A stretch of DNA of 64,000 bases from Dictyostelium discoideum (lineage: Eukaryota), in NCBI GenBank assembly GCA_000004695.1, contig CM000154.2:96001-160000 (forward strand), given 5' to 3'. Positions within the stretch are counted from its first letter, which is position 1. Each line of letters begins with the position of its first letter. A program made the translations under genes and the position numbers. This document shows positions 74-12,752 of the stretch, piece by piece. The notes beneath the pieces are model-generated. The model saw only the letters and a program-made list of their open reading frames with translations, did not search any database and was not told the DNA's origin.

Positions 74-1686
74 TTATGAACCCATTTGATCTAACATATT
101 TTTTAAATAATCTTTTTTATAAAAGTGTAAATATAAAGTAATGAAAACACCAATTAATAAAAATGAACCTAAACCAATTAAAAAATATTGTAAAGGATAA
201 ATTTTTGCATTTGATAAAAAATTTATAACCAAAACTAAAATAAAAATAATTGAACTTAAAATGGGTAATATTAAATGTCTAATGATTTGAAAGTCTTGAA
301 ATTGATTTAATCTAACATATCTAATCACTGCAATATTTGTAATAATAAAAATGATAATTATTGGAATTGTACCTGTAAAACTTAAATAATTATAAACTTC
401 CCAACAAGATTTTGCATAAATATTTTTAGTTGAACCAACAATTAATCCAATCATTAATATTATAAATCCAATTAAACTAATTATTGCGAAATGTGGTGTT
501 TTAAATCTTTTATTAGTTTTACCTAAATAAGAGATTACACCACTCTCTTTAGTTTTACCAAACGAATAAATTATTCTAAAAACAATATTAAACCAACTAC
601 TAACTACACCAAATCCAGATACTACACCTGCAATATCAACAATTATAGAGAACCAATACCCAACAAATCTATTTGCATATAGTTGAATGGGTGATTGATT
701 AACATTTATTGAAAATATATTTGAAGGTCCAACAGCAACAACCAATGAATACATTGCCCATATAAACCAAGTTGCAGCAAATGCAATTGAACCATAAACT
801 GCAATTGGTATATTCTTTTTTGGATTTCTAGTTTCTTGACCTAACGTAGCTGCACCTTCAAATCCAACAAATAAAAAACAACAATAAACCAAACCAGTTG
901 CAATACCTGAAATTCCACCTGAATTTTCACCAACTGGTGTGAATGCCAACGGATAATTACCTTGATCACCACCTTTAATAACAATAGAAAATGATAGTAC
1001 CAACATTACTAAAGTTTCTAAAATCATCGCAACTATACTAGTTTTCAAAACAACATCAATACCAATATACGCCAATGTTGGTACAATTGTTAATACTAAA
1101 AATGTACTAAGAATCCACGGACAATGAAAACCACAATACCTTGAAATTAAATCTGAAAACCCTCCTGAAAATTGTAAAATAACACTTGAAAGAATTAATA
1201 AATATCCAGTAATTAAAATCCAAAAACTTAAAAACCCCATTTCATTTCCTAATCCTTTTGTAATATAAACAAAGAAAGATGCACTACTACTAATATACTA
1301 AATATTATTTGTTTATTTTTTTTTTTATTTTTATTTTTTTTTTTAAATAATTTTATTTTATTTTCATATTAATTTTTAAAAATAATACTACATACAGTTC
1401 CAAATATACTAATTGTATTTGCAATTGATAAACAACATAATGTACCAATAAAAACTGTAAATGGTACACTCGTACCTGCTGATGCTGCAATATTTGGAAA
1501 AACAAAAAAAGTTGCTGCACTTAATCCAATACCACCAACTGATAATGCAATACATTCAATTACACCAATAGTATTTTTTTTTAATGTATTAAATTCATCA
1601 TCAACTGTTATTCCACTAGTACAACTATCAAAACTTGAATTTGTACTTAAATCACTACTTTTACAATTTATTTTTTTTAATTCCAT
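74..1686 (-). CDS. APC-superfamily amino-acid permease, tandem paralog 1 (exon 1 1396-1686, exon 2 74-1297)
   Basis: Exon 1 (MELKKINCKSSD...LKKNTIGVIECIALSVGGIGLSAATFFVFPNIAASAGTSVPFTVF...ISIFGT) ends at a GTATGT donor. Acceptor ...tttag precedes YISSSASFFVYITKGLGNEMGFLS..., which continues into ORF 74-1240. APC signature F.GFEGAATLGQETRNPKKNIP is present. The N-terminal MFFFLF part of track ORF 1369-1755 is just poly-A translation; the real ATG is at 1686 by paralog comparison. Confidence 0.8.
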
Positions 1687-2174
1687 ACTGGATCCATAAT
1701 TAAAAAAAAAAAAAAAAAAAGGAAAAAAAAAAAAATGGAATAAAAAAAAAAACAATCACATTTATATTTAAATATAATATTAAATTAAATATATAATAAA
1801 AATAGTTATTTTTATTTTTATTTTTTTTAATCCAATTTTGTTATCTCTTTTTCAATATATCACTAATTATAAAGTTGCTGATGTATCATTTTTTTTTTTA
1901 AGTTGAAATTATTAAGGAAATTTGTTTTTTTTTTTTTTATAAATATAATCTTTTAAAAAAAAAATAACAATAACATTAAATTAAACTTAACCCATTTTAC
2001 AAGTGTAAAAAATAAATAAATTAAAAAAAGATATAATATCTTTTGTGGGTGTGTGTGTTTTTAATTATGTTTTAATTTTAATTTTTATAATTTATTATTT
2101 TAATTGTAATATACAATAAAATAATTATAAATAAATATTATAACCTAATATTTAATTTTTTTTTTTACCAATAA

Positions 2175-3777
2175 TTATAAACTCATTTGATATAGCATAT
2201 TTTTTAAATATTCCTTATTGAAACGGTATAAAAAAAACATTACACACACACCCATTAATAATAAAATTCCTAACCCAATTAAAAAATAAGGAATTGGATA
2301 TTTTGGTGATGGATAAAAATTACCACCCAAAATTACAGTGAACAGAATTGCACTAAATATTGGTAAAATCATATGTCTGAAAAGTTGGAAATCTTTTGAT
2401 TGATAAACTTTAACATATCTAATCACTGCAATATTTGAAATTATAAATATTAAAATAATTGGAATTGTACCAGTAAAACTAATATAATTGTAAACTTCCC
2501 AACTCGATTCTGTATAAATACTTTTAGTTGAACCAACAATAATTGACGACATTAAAATTATAAAACCAGTTAAACTAATGATTGCATTATGTGGAGTTTT
2601 AAATTTTTGATTTGTTCTACCAAACCATGAAATAATTCCTTTCTCTTTAGTTTTACCAATTGAATAAATTATTCTAAAAACTATATTAAACCAACTACTA
2701 ATTACACCAAAAGTTGAAACTACACCAGCAATATCAATAATAACAGAATACCAAAATCCAATATATCTCTTTGCATAAATTCCAACAGGAAACTCATTTG
2801 TATCAATTGAAAATATATTTGAAGGCCCAGCAGCAACAACCAACGCATACATTGCCCATATAAACCAAGTTGCAGCAAATGCAATTGAGCCAAATACTGC
2901 AATTGGTATATTCTTTTTTGGATTTCTAGTTTCTTGACCTAATGTAGCGGCACCTTCAAATCCAACGAAAATGAATGTACAATAAACCAAACCAGTGGCA
3001 ATACCCGAAACTCCTCCGGAATATTCGCCAACTGGTGTGAATGCCAACGGATAATTACCTTGATCACCACCTTTAATTACAATTGTAAATGATAATCCTA
3101 AAATTACCAATGTCTCTAAAATCATTGCAATTATACTAGTTTTCAAAACAACATCAATACCAATATATGCCAACGTTGGAATTATCGTTACCACTATTAA
3201 TAAACTTAATATCCATGGACAATGAAAATCAGAATGCCTTGTTATTACATCTGAAAGCGAACCAACAAACATAAACATTGCGGACATCATAATTGCTAAA
3301 TATCCAATCATTAAAATCCAAACACTTAAAAATCCCATTTCATTTCCTAATCCTTTTGTAATATAAACAAAAAATGATGAACTACTACTAATATACTATA
3401 GATTTTTTTTTTTTTTTTTAAAAATTTTATTTTAATATTTTTATTTTAATTATTATAATTTTTAAAAATAAACTTACTTTACCAAATATACTAATTGTAT
3501 TTGCTACTGTTAAACAACATAATGCACCAAAAAAAATTGTAAATGGTACACTTGTACCTGCTGATGCTGCAATATTTGGATAAACAAAAAATGTTGCTGC
3601 ACTCAATCCAATACCACCAACTGATAATGCAATACATTCAATTACACCGATAGTATTTTTTTTTAATCCATCATAATGTGAATGATTATCTTCTTCATGT
3701 GATGAATTTATTCCTTCATTTTCAATTATTGCTCCCTCTTTTTGGAAATTTACTATATTACTATTTTCTAAACTCAT
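2175..3777 (-). CDS. APC-superfamily amino-acid permease, tandem paralog 2 (exon 1 3478-3777, exon 2 2175-3395)
   Basis: ORFs 3427-3777 and 2175-3338 are joined by a GTAAGT donor after ...SIFGK (phase 0) and a ctatag acceptor before YISSSSSFFVYITKGLGNEMGFL. Intron position and phase are identical to paralogs 1, 3 and 4. The product is about 506 aa with multiple TM segments. Confidence 0.85.
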
Positions 3778-4039
3778 TTTTAGATAATAAAAAAAAAAAA
3801 AACAAAAATAATAAAAAAAAAAAAATATTTAAACACGTATGTCATTTTTTACTTATTTTTATTTTTTTATTTTTGTTTTTTTAATATATCTCCCCACAAC
3901 ACACACCCACACTCCAATAATAATAGTTTTTTTTCAGAATTATTTAATATTAATTATTTATTCTCTATTTGCTTTAATAAAAAAATAAATAAAAATTAAT
4001 TATAACCAAATAATTAGTTGGTTTTTTTTTTTTTTTTTA

Positions 4040-4097
4040 AGATATAAAGTAATTAAAAGATATCCAATTATTTTGACTAAACTAATTTTAACTAATT
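4040..4097. promoter_or_regulatory. Conserved CCAAT-containing upstream block of permease paralog 2
   Basis: agatataaagtaattaaaagATATCCAATTATTTtgactaaactaatt lies about 260-320 bp 5' of the copy-2 ATG (3777, minus strand). A near-identical block recurs at the same relative position upstream of copies 3 and 4. Confidence 0.45.
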
Positions 4098-4159
4098 ATT
4101 TAATAAATAAATAAATAAATAAATATATAAATAAATAAATAAATAAATAAATTAATTAG

Positions 4160-4560
4160 TTTTTTTTTTTTCAAAGACCAATAATTTATATTATACTTTT
4201 ATAGAAGAAATTTTCATCATAAAAATTATTTCTTTGATTACAAATATTAATTAGGATACTAAAATCACCATAGTTTCGCCAATAACTAACATCAATGATA
4301 ATTTCAATGCTGGATTAATACCCACATAGGCTTATGCTGATATTAAAAGGTATGAATCTAGCATTTAAATTCTTTTACAAATGCTGCTATTATCCATGGG
4401 CAATGAAAATCAGTATCCCTCGATATTACATTGACTGTCGTTGAACTAAATTGAATCACCGTTTGCACTGATAATATTAAATAACCAATGATCATTAACC
4501 AAGCCGTTAAAAATCCCATCTCTTTTCCTAATCCTTCTGAAATAATACATATTATATATA
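4160..4560 (-). pseudogene. Internally deleted remnant of a divergent (copy-5 type) permease paralog
   Basis: Positions 4262-4560 are about 85% identical to copy-5 segment 9958-10210 (encoding ...EGLGKEMGFLTGWLMIIGYL...FHCPWI...). Positions 4190-4250 match the copy-5 3' end/stop region (8846-8900, gaaattttcatcataaa...aattatttctt). The two ends are joined with about 1.05 kb of ORF missing. There is no intact reading frame. Confidence 0.6.
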
Positions 4561-4674
4561 GTATCTTTTTATGTGTTTTTTTTATTGTTCTAATTTAATA
4601 TTTTAATTGTATTATTTAATAAAATAATAAATAAATATTAAAACCCTATATTTGTTTTTTATTTTTATCACCAA

Positions 4675-6275
4675 CTACAAACTCATTTGATAGAGCATAT
4701 TTTTTAAATATTCCTTATTGAAACGGTATAAATAAAACATTACACACACACCCATTAATAATAAAATTCCTAATCCAATTAAAAAATAAGGAATTGGATA
4801 ATTTGGTGATGGATAAAAATTACTACCCAAAATTACAGTGAAAAGAATTGCACTAAATATTGGTAAAATCATATGTCTGAAAAGTTGGAAATCTTTCGGA
4901 TGGTAAACTTTAACAAATCTAATTACGGCAATATTTGTAATTATGAATATTAAAATAACAGGGATTGTACTAGTGAAACTAATATAATCATAAACTTCCC
5001 AACTCGATTCTGTATAAATATTTTTAGTTGAACCAACAATAATTGACGACATTAAAATTATAAAACCAGTTAAACTAATGATTGCATTATGTGGAGTATT
5101 AAATTTTTGATTTGTTCTACCAAACCATGAAATAATTCCTTTCTCTTTAGTTTTACCAACTGAATAAATTATTCTAAAAACTATATTAAACCAACTACTG
5201 ATTACACAAAATCCAGAAACAACAGAAGTAATATCAATAATAACAGAATACCAAAATCCAATATATCTCTCTGCATAAACTCCAACTGTAAATTGAGATG
5301 TATCAATTGAAAATATATTTGAAGGTCCAACAGCAACAACCAATGAATACATTGCCAATATAAACCAAGTTGAAGCAAATGCAATTGAACCAAATACTGC
5401 AATTGGTATATTCTTTTTTGGATTTCTAGTTTCTTGACCTAATGTAGCGGCGCCTTCAAATCCAATAAAAATGAATGTGCAATAAACCAGACCAGTGGCA
5501 ATACCTGAAAAACCACCTGAATATTCACCAAACGGTGTGAGTGCTAATGGATAATTACCTTCATCACCACCTTTAATTACAATTGTAAATGATAGTACCA
5601 ACATTACCAAAGTTTCTAAAATCATTGTAATTATACTAGTTTTCAAAACAACATCAATGCCAATATATGCCAACGTTGGAATTATTGTAACAACAATTAT
5701 TAAACTTAATATCCATGGACAATGAAAATCAGAATATCTTGTTATTACATCTGAAAGTGGATTAACAAACATAAACATTGAACCCATCATATTTGCTAAA
5801 TATCCAATCATTAAAATCCAAACACTTAAAAATCCCATTTCATTTCCTAACCCTTTTGTAATATAAACAAAAAATGAAGCACTACTACTAATATACTATT
5901 TTTTTTTCAAAAATTTTATTGTTTTATTATCACTATTATTATTTTAATTTTACAATTTTTAAAAAATAAACATACTTTACCAAATATACTAATTGTATTA
6001 GCAAGTGTTAAACAACATAATGCACCAATAAAAATTGTAAATGGTACACTTGTACCTGCTGATGCTGCAATATTTGGAAAAACAAAAAATGTTGAAGCAC
6101 TCAATCCAATACCACCAACTGATAATGCAATACATTCAATTACACCAATAGTATTTTTTTTTAATCCATTATATAATAAATCATTTTCTTCTTTATTTGA
6201 CGAATTTATACCTTTATTTTCAATTATTACTCCTTCTTTTTGGAAATTTAGTATATTACTATTTTCTATACCCAT
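4675..6275 (-). CDS. APC-superfamily amino-acid permease, tandem paralog 3 (exon 1 5976-6275, exon 2 4675-5895)
   Basis: MGIENSNILNFQKEG...LKKNTIGVIECIALSVGGIGLSASTFFVFPNIAASAGTSVPF...ISIFGK is followed by a GTATGT donor. Acceptor ...aaatag precedes YISSSASFFVYITKGLGNEMGFLSVW. The exon structure is identical to copies 1, 2 and 4. Confidence 0.85.
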
Positions 6276-6524
6276 TTTTCGACAAAAAAAAAAAAATAAA
6301 TAAAAAATAAAATAGTTTACGCACTGTGAACCTTATTTTTATTTATTTTGTTTTTTTTCATATCCTAACTACAAACCCCGTACTCCAATAATAATAATTT
6401 TTTTTAGTATTGTTTATTATAAATTATTTGTTCATTATTTACTTTTTTATTTTATCTGAAAAAAAAAAAAAAAATTAATTAAACGGGTGCCGAAATAATT
6501 TTTTTTTTTTTTCTTTTTGTTTTT

Positions 6525-6585
6525 AGAGATAAAAAATAATTAAAATATATCCAATTATTTATAGTTAACTAATTTAAACCAATTG
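6525..6585. promoter_or_regulatory. Conserved CCAAT-containing upstream block of permease paralog 3
   Basis: agagataaaaaataattaaaatATATCCAATTATTTatagttaactaatttaaaccaattg lies about 250-310 bp 5' of the ATG at 6275. Confidence 0.45.
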
Positions 6586-6941
6586 ATCGATTAATTTTTT
6601 TTTTGTTGATAATTTCCAAATAATTTTTAAGTTTAGAAGCCGAAAAAAATACTTTTTTTTGGGTAATAATAAAATTGGCAAACTGTATTTTAGCTTTTTT
6701 GGTAAAATATTAAATAAAAAATTATAAAAATAATAAAAATACTCTTTTTTTCTACTTTATTTTATAATTTTTTTTTTTTTTTTTTTAATATCTTGTGTTT
6801 GAGAAGTAGATTTATTAAAGTAATTATATACAGTATCTTTTTTTAAGGATTTTTTTTCTAATTTAAATTTTAATTGTAATATACAATAAAATAATAATAA
6901 AAAAAATTTTAAACCTTATATTTTATTAATTTTATCAATAA

Positions 6942-8539
6942 TTACAAACTCATTTGACAGAGCATATTTTTTAAATATTCTTTATTGAAACGGTATAAAA
7001 AAAACATTACACACACACCCATTAATAATAAAATTCCTAATCCAATTAAAAAATAAGGAATTGGATAATATGGTGGTGGATAAAAATTACCTCCCAAAAT
7101 TACAGTGAATAGAATTGCACTAAATATTGGTAAAATCATATGTCTAAAAAGTTGGAAATCTTTTGATTGATAAACTTTAACATATCTAATCACTGCAATA
7201 TTTGAAATTATAAATATTAAAATAATTGGAATTGTACCAGTAAAACTAATATAATCATAAACTTCCCAACTCGATTCTGTATAAATATTTTTAGTTGAGC
7301 CAATAATAATTGCCGATATTAAAATTATAAAACCAGTTAAACTAATGATTGCATTATGGGGAGTCTTAAATTTTTGATTTGTTCTACCAAACCATGAAAT
7401 AATTCCTTTCTCTTTAGTTTTACCAATTGAATAAATTATTCTAAAAACTATATTAAACCAACTACTGATTACACTATATCCAGATACAACAGAAGTAATA
7501 TCAATAATAACAGAATACCAAAATCCAATATATCTCTCTGCATAAACTCCAACTGTAAATTGAGATGTATTAATTGAAAATATATTTGAAGGTCCAACAG
7601 CAACAACCAATGAATACATTGACATAGTAAACCAAGCTGCAGCAAATGCAATTGAGCCAAAAACTGCAATTGGTATATTCTTTTTTGGATTTCTAGTTTC
7701 TTGACCTAATGTAGCGGCGCCTTCAAATCCAATGAAAATGAATGTACAATAAACCAAACCAGTGGCAATACCTGAAATACCACCTGAATATTCCCCAACT
7801 GGTGTGAATGCCAGCGGATAATTACCTTGATCACCACCTTTAATTACAATTGCTAAAGATAGTACCAACATTACCAAAGTTTCTAAAATCATTGCAATTA
7901 TACTAGTTTTCAAAACAACATCAATACCAATATATGCCAACGTTGGAATTATTGTTACAACAATTAATAAGCATAATATCCATGGACAATTAAAATCAGA
8001 ATGCCTTGTTATTACATCTGAAAGTGAACCGACAAACATTAACATTCCTGAAATCAAATTTGTTAAATATCCAATTATTAAAACCCAAACACTTAAAAAT
8101 CCCATTTCATTTCCTAATCCTTTTGTAATATAAACAAAAAATGATGAACTACTACTTATATACTATTTTTTTTTTTCAAAAATTTTATAGTTTTAATATT
8201 ATTAATATTTTAATTTATAATTTTAAAAAATAAACTTACTTTACCAAATATACTAATTGTATTAGCAAGTGTTAAACAACATAATGCACCAATAAAAATT
8301 GTAAATGGTACACTTGTACCTGCTGATGCTGCAATATTTGGAAAAACAAAAAATGTTGAAGCACTTAATCCAATACCACCAACTGATAATGCAATACATT
8401 CAATTACACCGATAGTATTTTTTTTTAATCCATTATTTAATAAATCACCATCTTCTTCATGAGATAAATGTATACCTTTATTTTCAATTATTACTCCTTC
8501 TTTTTGGAAATTTACTATATTACTATTTTCTATACCCAT
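6942..8539 (-). CDS. APC-superfamily amino-acid permease, tandem paralog 4 (exon 1 8240-8539, exon 2 6942-8162)
   Basis: The start MGIENSNIVNFQKEG is assigned by alignment to paralog 3. The track ORF's upstream MRMDMKKTKNK... extension is probably 5' UTR. A GTAAGT donor follows ...SIFGK, and a ...ag acceptor precedes YISSSSSFFVYITKGLGNEMGFL. Confidence 0.8.
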
Positions 8540-8750
8540 TTTTTGATAATTAAAATAAAATAATAAAAAAAAAAAAAAAAATGCAAGCACTGTGTAAACC
8601 TTATTTTTTGTTTTTTTCATATCCATCCTCACCTCAAACCGATTGTTTATTATTAATTATTTGTTCACTATTTACTTGACCATTTTATATCTCATAAAAA
8701 AAAAAAAAAAAAAATTAAACCCTAATCCAAATAATTAATTTTTTTTTTTA

Positions 8751-8810
8751 AGATATAAAATAATTAAAAATATATCCAATTATTTATAGTAGACTAATTT
8801 AAACTAATTG
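8751..8810. promoter_or_regulatory. Conserved CCAAT-containing upstream block of permease paralog 4
   Basis: agatataaaataattaaaaatATATCCAATTATTTatagtagactaatttaaactaattgg lies about 210-270 bp 5' of the ATG at 8539. Confidence 0.45.
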
Positions 8811-8845
8811 GTTAATTTTTTTTTTTTTTTCCCAAAATAAATAAT

Positions 8846-10553
8846 TTATTTAATACTTTTATCAATGAAATTTTCATCATAAATAAAATTATTTCTTGGT
8901 GTATTAATTGAAGAAGTTGTTGGAATATATTCAGTGATATCATCATGATTATAATGTTTATTAAAATCAATAGGACCACTACCATTACCATTTGAATTGG
9001 AAGAAGTTGAAGAAGTTGTACCATCATGAGCAATCATAAAGCTCATTTTCTCTAATAAACCTTTCTTTGAACGTAAAATAAACATAATTATAACACCAAT
9101 TAAAATTAAAGCGCCTAAAGCAATTAAAAGATAAGAATAAGGTTTTTGAGGAACATCAGGATAAAAATTACCAACTAAAACTGCACTGAATAATATGGCA
9201 CTAATGAGTGGTAATATTAAATGATAGAATACATGATAATCTTGAGGTTGTTTCAATTTAACGTATGGTATAACGGCAATGTTTGTAATGATGAAAATTA
9301 AAATTAATGGAATTGTACCAATATAACTTAGATAACCATAAATTCTCCAAGAATTGTCAGTGTAAATACCCCAAATCGAAGCTACAATTACCAAACTTAG
9401 AGTGACAAAGGTTGAAAAGGCAATGATTGCTGCCATTGGAGTTTGAAATCTTTTACTTGTAATTGCCAATTTATTTACCACTGAATTACAATCACTCTTT
9501 CCAATTGAATATAAAATTCTAAATAAATTATTGAAAGCACTTGTACAAACATTAAAAGTTGATGAAATACCCGCTAAATCCACTAAAATCGAAAACCAAT
9601 AAGATACATATTTTCTTGCAAAAGTTTCCGCTGGTGAATTGATTGAAGAGATAATGAAAATATTTGAAACACCAACAGCAACAACCATTGCATACATTGC
9701 CCAAACCATCCATGCCGATGTTAATACTACTGAACCAACCACCGCAACCGGTATATTCTTTTTTGGATTTCTAGTTTCTGCACCCAATGTTGCAGCAACT
9801 TCAAAACCAATGAAAACAAGTACACAATAAACCAAACCTCTTGCAATACCTGAAACTCCACCTGAATAATCACCAGCTGGTGTGAATGCTAATGGATAAT
9901 TACCTTGATCACCACCTTTGATTACAACTATCAATGTGAAAACTAAAATCACCAAAGTTTCACCAATTACCAATATCAATGATAATTTCAATGCTGGATT
10001 AATACCCACATAGGCTAATACTGATATGAATAGTATAACAAATGCTGCTGCCATAATCCATGGACAATGAAAATCAGTATTCCTCGATATTACATCGGCT
10101 GTCGTTGAACTAAATTGAATCACCGTTTGTACTGATAATGTTAAATAACCAATGATCATTAACCAACCCGTTAAAAATCCCATCTCTTTTCCTAATCCTT
10201 CTGAAACATAACTATAGAATGATGATGATGTACTAATATATCTACCAAATGTACTAATCGTTGATGACATTGATAAACAACATAATGTAGCTATCATCAA
10301 TGTAAATGGTACACTACTACCTGCAACCATAGCAATTTGTGGGAATACAAATAAAATACCTGTTGTTGGTCCAACCCCTCCAATTGAAAATGCTATACAG
10401 TGAATTAATCCTAATGTATTCTTTTTTAATTCTTTACCATTACCATTACCATTATTATTATTATTATTATTATTATTTTTATCTTCGTTTGTTGATGCAA
10501 ATATATCGGAATGATCTTCTTCTTCAATTTTAAATACCATTTTACTATTATTA

Positions 10554-10635
<82 letters not shown>

Positions 10636-10843
10636 TTATGAATGATGATAATAATGGTACTTTTATATTTTCATTATCATTATCATTATAATTATTATTA
10701 TCATTTATATTATTATGGTTATCAATATTATTTTTATTATTATTATTATTATAATTATTATTATTATTACCACTATTTAAAGTGGTGGTTCTTTTTCCAT
10801 TATTGGATTTTACTGCATCTTTTGAAACAATACGACCACTCAT
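8846..10843 (-). CDS. Divergent intron-less APC-superfamily amino-acid permease paralog 5 with an Asn-rich N-terminal extension
   Basis: A single 665-aa ORF holds the same APC core (LKKNTLGLIHCIAFSIGGVGPTTGILFVFPQIAMVAGSSVPF...GFEVAATLGAETRNPKKNIP) at about 55% identity to copies 1-4. The position where copies 1-4 carry their intron is read through (FGRYISTSSSFYSYVSEGLGKEMGFL). (AAT)n tracts encode poly-N stretches. Confidence 0.85.
10537..10640. repeat. (ATT/AAT)n microsatellite inside the CDS (encodes poly-Asn on the minus strand)
   Basis: A perfect trinucleotide array of about 34 units lies inside paralog 5. Confidence 0.9.
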
Positions 10844-11316
10844 TATATTATGGGCGTTGTAAATAATTTATATATTTGTGTGTTTGAGGTGGGTAATCAA
10901 TTTAAATGGTAATTATATTTTTAAATACATATTATATACAATTTATAAGTAGGTTTTTTTTTTTTATTATTTTTTGTAAAATTAAAAAAAGAATTATGCG
11001 TGTGGTTAAACAATAAGGTGGTTAATATGTTGTCATAATAAAAAAAAAAAAAATTATGAATATAAAATTATTTTTTTTTTTTTTTTTTTTTTTTTTTATT
11101 TTTTTTTTTTTTTTTTTTTTGTTTTCCTGGTTGGTTTGGGAAATCAAAAAGAGATATTTTGAGTGTGGGAAAATAAAAAAAATAATAAAAATAAAAAAAT
11201 AAAAATTATTTTATATTCCTTTTTTTTTTCATTGAACCTTCAGTTCAAATATTATTTTTCACTTTACATTTTATAAATTCATTTTTAAATTATTTTTTAT
11301 TTCTATAATTTCCAAA

Positions 11317-11357
<41 letters not shown>

Positions 11358-11639
11358 GTTTATATATCACAAATAATAACTAATAAAATTTATTATCTTT
11401 TTTTTTTTTTTTTTTTTTAAAAAATTAAAGTTTTTTAAAACTATGTTTTTAAATAAAAATTCTCACTAAACAAAGAGTGTATTTGTAATAATGAATAAAT
11501 TTATTCCTAAAAAAAGAAGAATTTTTAATATAAAATGAATTTTTTTTTTTTTTTCCATATTCTTCCAAAACTTTAAATTTAAACAAAAAAAATAAAAAAA
11601 ATAATAATTTAAAACAAAAACCAAAGAAAATTTAAAACA

Positions 11640-12752
11640 ATGAAACTTTTAATGTCATTAATTTTGACAATTACATTATTATCAACAATTAATGTTAATG
11701 CAACAGAAACATGGAGATGTATTAAAAGTGGTCAAGGATGTTTTATTGAAGGTGATGATATCTGTCCAAAAGGAGAATATTGCAATCCAAATCAAGAAAC
11801 CTCAAAAAATGATAGTAGTACTAGTAGAACTGGTAATCCATTACCAAGTGGAACATGTTTACCATTAATTAAAGAAGGACAACCATGTTATTTATATCAA
11901 AGATGTGATTTTGGTTTACATTGTAAAATTCCACCAACTCAATTTCCAGGAGATCAATATAGTGTTGAAGGAATATGTGTTTCATCAAAGTTTTTAATGG
12001 TTGGTGAAAATTGTTCAAATGATTCAGAATGTTTAGGTCGTTTAGAATGTAAAAATCAAAAATGTACACCACAAGATTCTGAATATGGATATGAATGTTA
12101 TATGGATGAAGATTGCCCTTCTGGGAACTTCTGTTACTGGGGATCAAATAAAAATCTATGTAAACCTTTAAATAAAATTGGTTCAAATTGTACCTATGGA
12201 AATGATTTCACATTAGGTTCAATTTGTAGAAATAATAAGTGTATTGAAAAATTCTCTTTAAAAAATGGTGAAATTTGTTTAGAAAGAGAAGATTGTGAAT
12301 CATATACTGTAATTATTTAAATTATTAATATATATATATATAGATATATATATATATATTTATATATATTAACCTTAAAACAATATTATTTTTAAAAGTG
12401 TGATTATAATTTATTAGAAAATGGTGATAGAAATATTTCAATATTTAATAATTATTATTGTCAAAAAAAAGAATTTAATTCAAATGATTGTAAAAAAGAT
12501 GGTTGCAAAAATAATGGTGAAATTTGTGATTTTAATTCAAATAAATGTTTGGATTCTTATCCAATAGGTTCTGAAAAATGTAAATCAGCAACTAAACTTA
12601 GAGATTATTGTTTCATTAAAAATAAATGTCCCCTTAGAACTAATTTCAATGTTGAACAAAGAAATAAAAAATCATGCAATATAAAATATTGTGAATTTGA
12701 AATTAATAATTATTTAGAAAATTGCATTTTAGAATCAACTTATTGTAAATAA
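11640..12752 (+). CDS. Secreted cysteine-rich protein (signal peptide plus multiple Cys-rich repeat modules), 2 exons 11640-12308 and 12399-12752
   Basis: The N-terminal signal peptide is MKLLMSLILTITLLSTINVNA. Cys is spaced in C..C...C......C modules. A GTAATT donor after ...ESYT (phase 0) and an aaaag acceptor before CDYNLLENGDRNIS... are in phase and join onto track ORF 12549-12752. The intron is a (TA)n tract. Confidence 0.6.

Follow-up and report, generated by a model that had tools for sequence, protein, structure and literature searches.

Birth-and-death evolution combined with interlocus gene conversion is a general and well-described mode for tandemly arrayed gene families, and tandem duplicates are a noted feature of the Dictyostelium discoideum genome. 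Here we analyze one array of this type in a stretch of 64,000 nucleotides (nt) from this species (GenBank assembly GCA_000004695.1, contig CM000154.2, positions 96,001 to 160,000 of the forward strand; "the window" below, in whose coordinates all features are given unless another sequence is named). The window has a guanine plus cytosine (GC) content of ∼22%, and its positions 74–10843 encode, on the minus strand, five intact permease genes of the APC superfamily, which we call c1 to c5 in order of increasing position. Genes c2, c3, and c4 are copies of one type, referred to here as M. We consider the array, with a probability of about 0.78, to be a D. discoideum lineage-specific tandem expansion of a dictyostelid APC-superfamily permease locus that evolves by birth-and-death with local gene conversion.

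As in other birth-and-death families, the paralogs lie head to tail on one strand, have flanks in common, differ in number between genomes, include pseudogenized or truncated members, and show mosaic similarity as well as asymmetric divergence of the daughter copies. The difference is that the permease repeat appears to have begun as a two-gene module (c5 plus M), with c5 eliminated from every extra copy. It is because of this removal that the array resembles a single-gene repeat.

A second comparison is offered by the tgrB1/C1 allorecognition locus of the same organisms. The tgrB1/C1 pair shows extremely complex synteny, and the tgrBC locus has been described as having undergone "rampant rearrangements", probably in the same set of genomes as used here (PMC12745789). 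By comparison, the permease array is much more orderly. Its flanks keep their synteny, its copies are under purifying selection (ratio of nonsynonymous to synonymous divergence, dN/dS, of 0.10–0.38), its excess of synonymous divergence (dS) is only ∼1.5–2×, and no link to a recognition function is suggested for it.

Spacers, relics, and the related genomes

The adjacent, same-strand copies c4, c3, and c2 have two blocks of noncoding sequence in common. One is a 3′ flank of ∼130 nt (F), which is 75%–78% identical among them, and the other is a promoter-proximal block of ∼300 nt (P), which gives local-alignment z scores of 11–28 relative to shuffled sequences and carries AAATAATTGGATAT at 8785, 6560, and 4073. 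Neither c1 nor c5 has these flanks. The region upstream of c1 could not be aligned to block P (z = 1.9–3.5, indistinguishable from shuffled sequence). Thus the suggestion of an earlier reading made from the sequence alone (the sequence-only reading), that promoter-proximal sequences had been duplicated along with copies 1 to 4, stands for c4, c3, and c2 and falls for c1. Because divergence among the copies is uneven and flanks are shared, the pattern that would speak against recent tandem duplication (even divergence and no common flanks) was not what we found.

The composition of the spacers identifies the unit that was duplicated. In base-level alignments, the M 3′ flank (...AAAAAGATAYTRTATATAAT) continues straight into the sequence that lies just upstream of the c5 start codon (...ATATGTATTTAAA...CTCAAACACACAA...). 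Every spacer between M copies consists of M 3′ flank, c5-upstream sequence, variously eroded pieces of c5, and M promoter block. Because these spacers hold both the fusion of flank with c5-upstream sequence and the c5 relics, we infer that the duplicated unit was c5+M, ∼4.2 kb in length, and that the present 2.1- to 2.5-kb period is secondary, the extra c5 copies having been deleted. The sequence-only reading had the array growing by unequal crossing-over of a ∼2.3- to 2.5-kb single-gene unit, a proposal that we abandon given the c5-upstream sequence and c5 relics in the spacers. The left end of the ancestral module is marked by the region upstream of the c5 ATG (10844–10983, minus strand, as for all features of the array), because it is copies of this region that adjoin the M 3′ flank in the M–M spacers.

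The clearest relic, overlooked in the sequence-only reading, is a decayed c5 duplicate between c3 and c2 (psi-c5, 4186–4543). Its body (4543–4232) aligns to nt 637–928 of the c5 coding sequence (CDS) and contains a 3-nt deletion and a 23-nt insertion bearing a TAG stop. Its tail (4245–4186) aligns to the final ∼60 nt of the same CDS, with a score of 35 compared with a shuffle maximum of 20, and ∼1 kb of c5 is absent between the two. At the DNA level, psi-c5 is 94% similar to c5 over 161 nt and 85% over 311 nt (E = 3e-85), and its tblastn amino acid identity is 84%–88% to c5 versus 47%–54% to c2. The relic is preceded by the 3′ flank of c3 (4544–4674; 75%–78% identity with the c4 and c2 flanks), which terminates, directly before the psi-c5 body, in TATATAATATGTATT, a 15-nt exact match to c5-upstream sequence (z = 3.4). 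It is followed by block P of c2 (3778–4185; motif at 4073; z = 11.0 and 28.1). The presence of psi-c5 explains why the c2–c3 spacing is the longest in the array (2500 nt; start-to-start distances in array order are 2098, 2500, 2267, and 2078 nt).

In the c4–c3 spacer, flank F of c4 passes into a short piece derived from c5-upstream sequence (6812–6941; 78% identical to the c3 flank). This flank and junction are colinear, at 81%, with positions 11560–11741 of the locus in another D. discoideum assembly ("strain W", L003), where they overlap the strain W c5-upstream relic. Next comes a segment (X, 6605–6811) in the position that the c5 relic occupies in the c3–c2 spacer. Within it, 6734–6680 matches L003 11943–11998 at 91%, downstream of the 5′ c5 relic of strain W. 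Block P of c3 (6276–6604; motif at 6560; z = 19.8 and 28.1) completes the spacer. The spacer between c5 and c4 is block P of c4 (8540–8845; motif at 8785; z = 19.8 to c3 and 11.0 to c2), to which block P of c3 is 69% identical over 337 nt (E = 7e-42). The c2–c1 spacer (1687–2174) begins with flank F (2174 to ∼2030; 75% identical to the c3 flank) and continues with sequence absent from the other spacers; no c5 relic was found in it. A search for the c5 tail in the c4–c3 and c2–c1 spacers gave scores of 13, compared with shuffle means of ∼16.

The syntenic locus was taken from four other genomes by way of proteins found in homology searches, and all copies were mapped uniformly. D. citrinum and D. 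dimigraforme have c5, M, and c1 only (three permease genes each). D. cf. discoideum has four units, namely c5, two M copies (one of c3/c4 type, interrupted by an in-frame stop, and one of c2 type), and c1. Strain W has c5, copy A, an internally deleted copy, copies B and C, and c1 (five units plus the truncated one, in which the deletion joins ...QETRN to QMSL*). A second D. discoideum assembly (L002) has the same five-copy layout as the window and is 99.8% identical to it over 13 kb. The number of units per genome is therefore 3, 3, 4, 5, and 5+1, so that the copy-number variation predicted by the sequence-only reading is observed directly. Differences in copy number and pseudogenes among close genomes, as expected under birth-and-death, are both present, with two decayed copies in the other genomes (the nonsense copy of D. 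cf. discoideum and the deleted copy of strain W) and, besides these, the psi-c5 relics.

Module junctions recur in the related genomes that have additional M copies. After copy A of strain W, c5-upstream sequence extends past a mutated start codon as far as nt 50 of c5 (L003 11668–11866 versus window 10983–10794; 79% over 202 nt, E = 5e-39, z = 17), and a relic of the middle of c5 lies between B and C. Copy A of D. cf. discoideum is followed by a fragment of c5-upstream sequence (z = 8.9). The spacers of D. citrinum and D. dimigraforme are short and yielded no relics by tblastn and blastn, and the M–c1 spacer of D. citrinum showed no c5-upstream piece (z = 1.3).

Ages, conversion, and selection among the copies

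In a codon-based neighbor-joining tree (480 ungapped codons, 200 bootstraps), the orthogroups c5, c1, and M are each recovered with 100% bootstrap support, and c1 has one ortholog in every genome examined. In the D. discoideum complex, all M copies form a clade of their own, apart from the M genes of D. citrinum and D. dimigraforme (99%), and the first split among them separates c2-type from c3/c4-type copies (80%). In the whole-gene tree, copies pair by position across strains, although weakly (62%–76%). In the protein tree, c5 groups with D. purpureum 17501 and with Polysphondylium and Acytostelium homologs (88%), and M plus c1 (100%) is sister to D. purpureum 26824 (96%). Genes c5, M, and c1 are old paralogs that predate the split of D. 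discoideum, D. citrinum, and D. dimigraforme; c5 is the conserved dictyostelid type, and its separation from M/c1 predates D. purpureum. Only M multiplied, and it did so inside the D. discoideum complex, giving rise to the conserved c2 and the fast-evolving c3 and c4.

The history of the M genes is not uniform along their length. Shared-derived sites among c2, c3, and c4 favor ((c3,c4),c2) (29 sites versus 9 and 2 for the alternatives). In sliding windows, each copy in the window is nearest to its strain W positional ortholog over alignment nt ∼300–1000, and nearest to a paralog from the same genome in the first ∼300 and last ∼500 nt. Partition bootstraps change accordingly between the middle (nt 300–1000) and the 3′ third (nt 1000–1506): from 89% to 0% for c4+A, from 81% to 1% for c2+C, from 0% to 100% for the A+B pair of D. 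cf. discoideum, and from 0% to 70% for c2+c4. For the 5′ part, support is 66% for c3+c4 and 0% for c4+A. The 3′ zone, as delimited by sliding windows and partition bootstraps, corresponds to 2184–2689 in c2, 4684–5189 in c3, and 6951–7456 in c4. GENECONV-style permutations detected tracts between c2 and c4 (95 nt, p = 0.004), between c2 and c3 (64 nt, p = 0.007), and between the two D. cf. discoideum copies (127 nt, p = 0.0002), and the pairwise homoplasy index (PHI) test was also significant (p = 0.0045).

Since the partition bootstraps are incongruent, the gene ends reflect either interlocus conversion or chimeric copies formed by intragenic unequal crossover. The gene conversion that the sequence-only reading had predicted is thus borne out, within limits. 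Concerted evolution, in the sense of within-genome paralogs being closer than orthologs, applies to the first ∼300 nt and the last ∼500 nt of the genes. Homogenization of the whole array was not found, as both whole-gene and middle-partition trees pair copies by position, with within-genome pairs at 0%–6%.

Synonymous divergence places these events in order. Values are ∼0.44–0.51 for c1 versus M and 0.30–0.45 for D. discoideum versus D. citrinum orthologs (0.39–0.42 for the M copies versus D. citrinum M). In the middle partition they are 0.22–0.25 for c2 versus c3/c4 and 0.145 for c3 versus c4 (0.145–0.253 over all paralogs). Between the D. discoideum-clade genomes, flanking single-copy genes differ by 0.10–0.135, and c5 and c1 by 0.06–0.12 across strains; the text of PMC12745789 gives no numeric dS baseline. 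Positional M orthologs (compared with L003 A, B, and C and with L004 B) differ by 0.165–0.20, even in the middle partition. As the middle partition retains these values, we rejected conversion at the gene ends as the full cause of the high cross-strain divergence of M. Older conversion by copies that are now lost, hidden paralogy, or a locally raised mutation rate could account for the excess.

Selective constraint differs among the copies. Relative to D. citrinum orthologs, dN/dS is 0.10–0.13 for c5, c1, and c2 (0.10 for c2 versus D. citrinum M) and 0.20 for c3 and c4; among c2, c3, and c4 themselves it is 0.29–0.38. Tajima relative-rate tests on amino acids gave 47 changes in c4 versus six in c2 (p = 2e-8) and 42 in c3 versus 11 in c2 (p = 2e-5), so that c3 and c4 proteins have evolved four to eight times faster than c2. 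The same amino acid asymmetry is seen in the strain W copies. Because amino acid rates are asymmetric while synonymous third positions are symmetric (p > 0.29), we regard c2 as a conserved, parental-like copy and c3 and c4 as faster daughters that are still constrained. One region of c3 stands out, with 14 private substitutions in 90 nt (∼4888–4977, codons 407–436; permutation p = 0.001) that change FTGTIPIILIFIISNIAVIRYVKVYQSKDF to FTSTIPVILIFIITNIAVIRFVKVYHPKDF. Several of these substitutions are also present in copy B of strain W. We considered and rejected copying of this cluster from c5 or c1: of 48 sites specific to c3, c5 matches 8 and c1 matches 12, with no enrichment in the cluster.

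Growth of the array and alternative accounts

In our reconstruction, a single nonhomologous (illegitimate, short-homology) tandem duplication would have produced a second ∼4.2-kb c5+M module. This would have comprised ∼100–140 nt upstream of c5, c5 itself, the 306-nt spacer, M, and ∼135 nt of 3′ flank, the equivalent of ∼10983 to 6812 in the window. Homologous unequal crossovers between modules would then have changed module number while propagating the same junction. Independent, piecemeal deletions would have cleared the redundant c5 copies, with the M copies staying under purifying selection, and the gene ends may still be homogenized by interlocus gene conversion or by unequal crossover within genes.

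The regular period (2098–2500 nt) and the promoter block and 3′ flank common to c4, c3, and c2 would also be expected if a ∼2.3- to 2.5-kb unit of promoter, gene, and flank had been multiplied by homologous unequal crossing-over, with c5 as an older, unrelated neighbor. However, such a single-gene unit would not carry c5 relics. It is therefore contradicted by the c3–c2 spacer, where body and tail of c5 (358 nt) lie in the correct order and orientation, by the joining of M 3′ flank to c5-upstream sequence in three genomes, and by the strain W fusion, which continues through nt 50 of the c5 CDS, all of which make it quite improbable. One might instead attribute the c5 fragments to ectopic insertion or conversion from c5, with no duplication of c5+M, given that any one spacer holds only a few hundred bases of c5. 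Yet pieces from the upstream region and 5′ end, the middle, and the tail occupy the equivalent spacer position across genomes and spacers, always colinear, in the same orientation, and between M 3′ flank and M promoter block. Differing but colinear pieces are the pattern expected from independent erosion of full-length copies, and we consider ectopic insertion very improbable.

A less likely account than the single-gene unit, although not as implausible as ectopic insertion, is that the multicopy state is ancestral, that copies disappeared from D. citrinum and D. dimigraforme, and that concerted evolution produced the apparent monophyly of M. Deletions are indeed frequent at the locus (the relics and the truncated copy), and gene conversion does homogenize parts of the genes. 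Against this, dS among paralogs in the middle partition (0.145–0.253) is well below the 0.39–0.42 that separates them from D. citrinum M, and the short D. citrinum and D. dimigraforme spacers hold no relics or, in the case of the D. citrinum M–c1 spacer, c5-upstream piece. It should also be asked if the repeat structure or the differences in copy number could be assembly artifacts, as tandem repeats pose difficulties for assembly in DNA of 22% GC and each comparison genome is a single assembly. The copies, however, differ by 6.5%–20% and are for that reason easily told apart. Moreover, the window and L002 agree in layout and at 99.8% over 13 kb, and the comparison assemblies likely come from a Nanopore-plus-Illumina project that covered these very species and isolates and for which validated structural quality was reported (PMC12745789). 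The chance of an artifact is, in our judgment, close to negligible.

Several points count against our reconstruction of a duplicated c5+M module followed by birth-and-death and local conversion. Direct alignment of the c4–c3 spacer to c5-upstream sequence was not significant (z = −0.2), and a module origin of this spacer is suggested through colinearity with strain W only. The ∼1.5–2× excess of dS of M positional orthologs over the flanking baseline is incompletely explained by the model. Over the whole gene, the positional orthology of c3 with B and of c4 with A has modest bootstrap support (62%–68%). The trees are neighbor-joining trees on Jukes–Cantor or Kimura distances and are not likelihood based, the conversion tests are our own simple implementations, and the nonsense codon and the internal deletion each come from a single assembly.

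Gene models, predicted products, and meaning

The gene models were derived by reading the sequence and testing splice sites. Four genes have two exons each: c1 (74–1686; exons 1686–1396 and 1297–74, intron 1298–1395 of 98 nt; 504 amino acids), c2 (2175–3777; exons 3777–3478 and 3395–2175, intron 3396–3477 of 82 nt; 506 amino acids), c3 (4675–6275; exons 6275–5976 and 5895–4675, intron 5896–5975 of 80 nt; 506 amino acids), and c4 (6942–8539; exons 8539–8240 and 8162–6942, intron 8163–8239 of 77 nt; 506 amino acids). The intron begins with GT, ends with AG, lies exactly between ...ISIFG[KT] and YISSS..., and is in phase 0, since exon 1 is 291 or 300 nt long. Gene c5 (10843–8846; 665 amino acids) is a single, intronless open reading frame that is uninterrupted at the intron site, where it reads ...TFGRYISTSSSF.... 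Its stretch preceding the LKKNT motif is 138 amino acids long, of which 66 are Asn, compared with 34–37 amino acids in the other copies, an Asn-rich N-terminal extension of ∼101 amino acids. It also has a C-terminal tail of 65 amino acids versus 6 in the others, an extension of ∼59 amino acids that the sequence-only reading did not mention.

That reading's outline of the locus, a tandem array of five permease genes of two structural types, is confirmed by the intact frames of all five minus-strand genes, as are the single phase-0 intron at one position in copies 1 to 4 (77–98 nt) and, for c5, the absence of the intron and the Asn-rich N-terminal extension of ∼100 amino acids. Its identity values need revision. 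Copies 1 to 4 are indeed related copies, but CDS identities are 92.1%–93.5% among c2, c3, and c4 and 79.4%–80.5% between c1 and these three, rather than 80%–90% throughout. The "about 55%" given for c5 fits the protein (50.8%–52.6% to any other copy) and not the DNA (64.6%–66.1% over the CDS).

Existing annotations of the locus are mixed. Genes c1 and c2 exactly match the AX4 proteins DDB_G0287423 (Q54KK5) and DDB_G0287425 (Q54KK4), and c4 exactly matches ACTFIT_000062, a protein of another D. discoideum assembly. The AX4 model DDB_G0287301 (Q54KK3, 1054 amino acids; window 4675–8539) is c4 and c3 joined via translated spacer, a fusion that is almost certainly an annotation error. Because Q54KK3 merges these two genes, the five-gene count of the sequence-only reading is better than that of the reference annotation. 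Elsewhere, ACTFIR_001063 (1010 amino acids), from another assembly, fuses c2 to c1, and ACTFIT_000061 (563 amino acids; L002 12265–14182) splices c3 into the open frame of the psi-c5 relic. In this last, predicted chimeric model, the junction leads from the last codons of c3 (...YQM) into the relic frame (KGLGKEMGFLTAWLM...; window 4544–4690), using a GT that overlaps the final c3 codons and an AG at the boundary of flank and relic.

Upstream of c5, the flank contains a Cys-rich open reading frame of secreted type on the plus strand (11640–12320), the counterpart of which is annotated with a Dickkopf_N domain in other assemblies. Acetyltransferase genes and a gene for TFIIE-beta lie beyond it. 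All five D. discoideum-group genomes examined retain synteny across this flank. In D. purpureum, the c5 ortholog and the M/c1 co-ortholog are on separate scaffolds (GL870957 and GL871026) with no neighbors in common, so either c5 and M/c1 are adjacent in the D. discoideum group alone, or they have become separated in D. purpureum. Scans of the whole 64-kb window for tRNAs (ARAGORN) and Rfam families (gathering thresholds) returned no matches.

Both M and c1 carry the FG[KT]/YIS intron in each of the three species in which these genes occur, and no genome has it in c5. It is also missing from D. purpureum 26824 and from the P. violaceum gene, each of which is a single exon. D. purpureum 17501 also lacks it and has an intron of its own after ...GSWK, and the Acytostelium gene has an intron after residue 87, with the FG[KT]/YIS site at residue 127. 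Most parsimoniously, the phase-0 intron would have been gained once, on the stem leading to M and c1, when the D. purpureum lineage had already branched off. An origin at the next deeper node, with D. purpureum losing the intron later, would cost only one extra step.

The proteins scanned with Pfam (c1, c2, and c5) match PF13520 (AA_permease_2) with 85–97 bits (cutoff 27) and PF00324 (AA_permease) with 58–88 bits (cutoff 24.6), with c5 scoring 85 and 88 bits, respectively. These matches are full length (∼410–460 of 427–470 profile positions) and above the gathering scores, establishing membership in the APC superfamily; the c3 and c4 proteins are 88%–89% identical to c2. A crude Kyte–Doolittle scan detected 9–11 hydrophobic segments, equivalent to ∼11–12 helices. 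The nearest solved structures, with remote but significant similarity, are human CAT1/SLC7A1 (E = 5e-9), Escherichia coli AdiC (E = 2e-5), and PDB 6f2g, a bacterial putative amino acid/polyamine transporter, which we take to be GkApcT. The array permeases resemble these transporters in their full-length Pfam matches and, to judge from the crude hydropathy scan, may do so in helix number, and differ from the curated APC subfamilies in falling below every NCBIfam cutoff. The best match, to TIGR00909 ("2A0306"), scored 73 bits for c2 and 95 bits for c5 against a cutoff of 557, and TIGR00906 (CAT/SLC7), TIGR00911 (LAT), and NF053761 (BcaP) scored below TIGR00909, with no curated cutoff reached.

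As sampled, this permease family is confined to dictyostelids. Beyond Dictyostelia, bacterial and metagenomic APC permeases were found at 22%–27% identity, with no other eukaryote listed in a search that was limited by shared words. The lack of other eukaryotes among these hits may reflect deep divergence rather than horizontal transfer. As no curated subfamily was reached and relatives outside the group are only 22%–27% identical, "amino acid permease" should be read as a superfamily label. The c1–c5 products are most likely secondary transporters of amino acids or related amines with ∼12 transmembrane segments. The substrate, the effect on nutrient uptake proposed in the sequence-only reading, and any benefit of the extra M copies (through dosage or diversified specificity) can be suggested from family membership only. 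We found no mention of the c1–c5 gene identifiers in the searchable literature and nothing specific on expansions of Dictyostelium amino acid transporters.

The permease array is an ordinary kind of feature, although it neatly illustrates how a module can be duplicated and then selectively eroded. Because it is ordinary in kind and the transporter substrate is deduced only from the family, its biological consequence is speculative. We can imagine, although we think it unlikely, that c3 and c4 were freed after module duplication to diversify in specificity or regulation, beyond dosage, at a locus that is perhaps a recombination hotspot, with a datable, recent gain of a spliceosomal intron on the M/c1 stem. 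A hotspot would account for both the raised synonymous divergence between strains and the confinement of conversion to the gene ends. Were this true, module duplication, the selective erosion of one partner, neofunctionalization, and intron gain could all be followed in nature at one compact locus of a single species complex.

For a locus that has been annotated yet is uncharacterized, the analysis corrects the gene-model picture (DDB_G0287301 is two genes), and copy-number variation and gene conversion, earlier only predicted, are documented directly from five related genomes. The array is also a worked example of how a seemingly single-gene repeat can descend from a two-gene module by selective loss of one partner, and it cautions against inferring duplication units from present-day periodicity.

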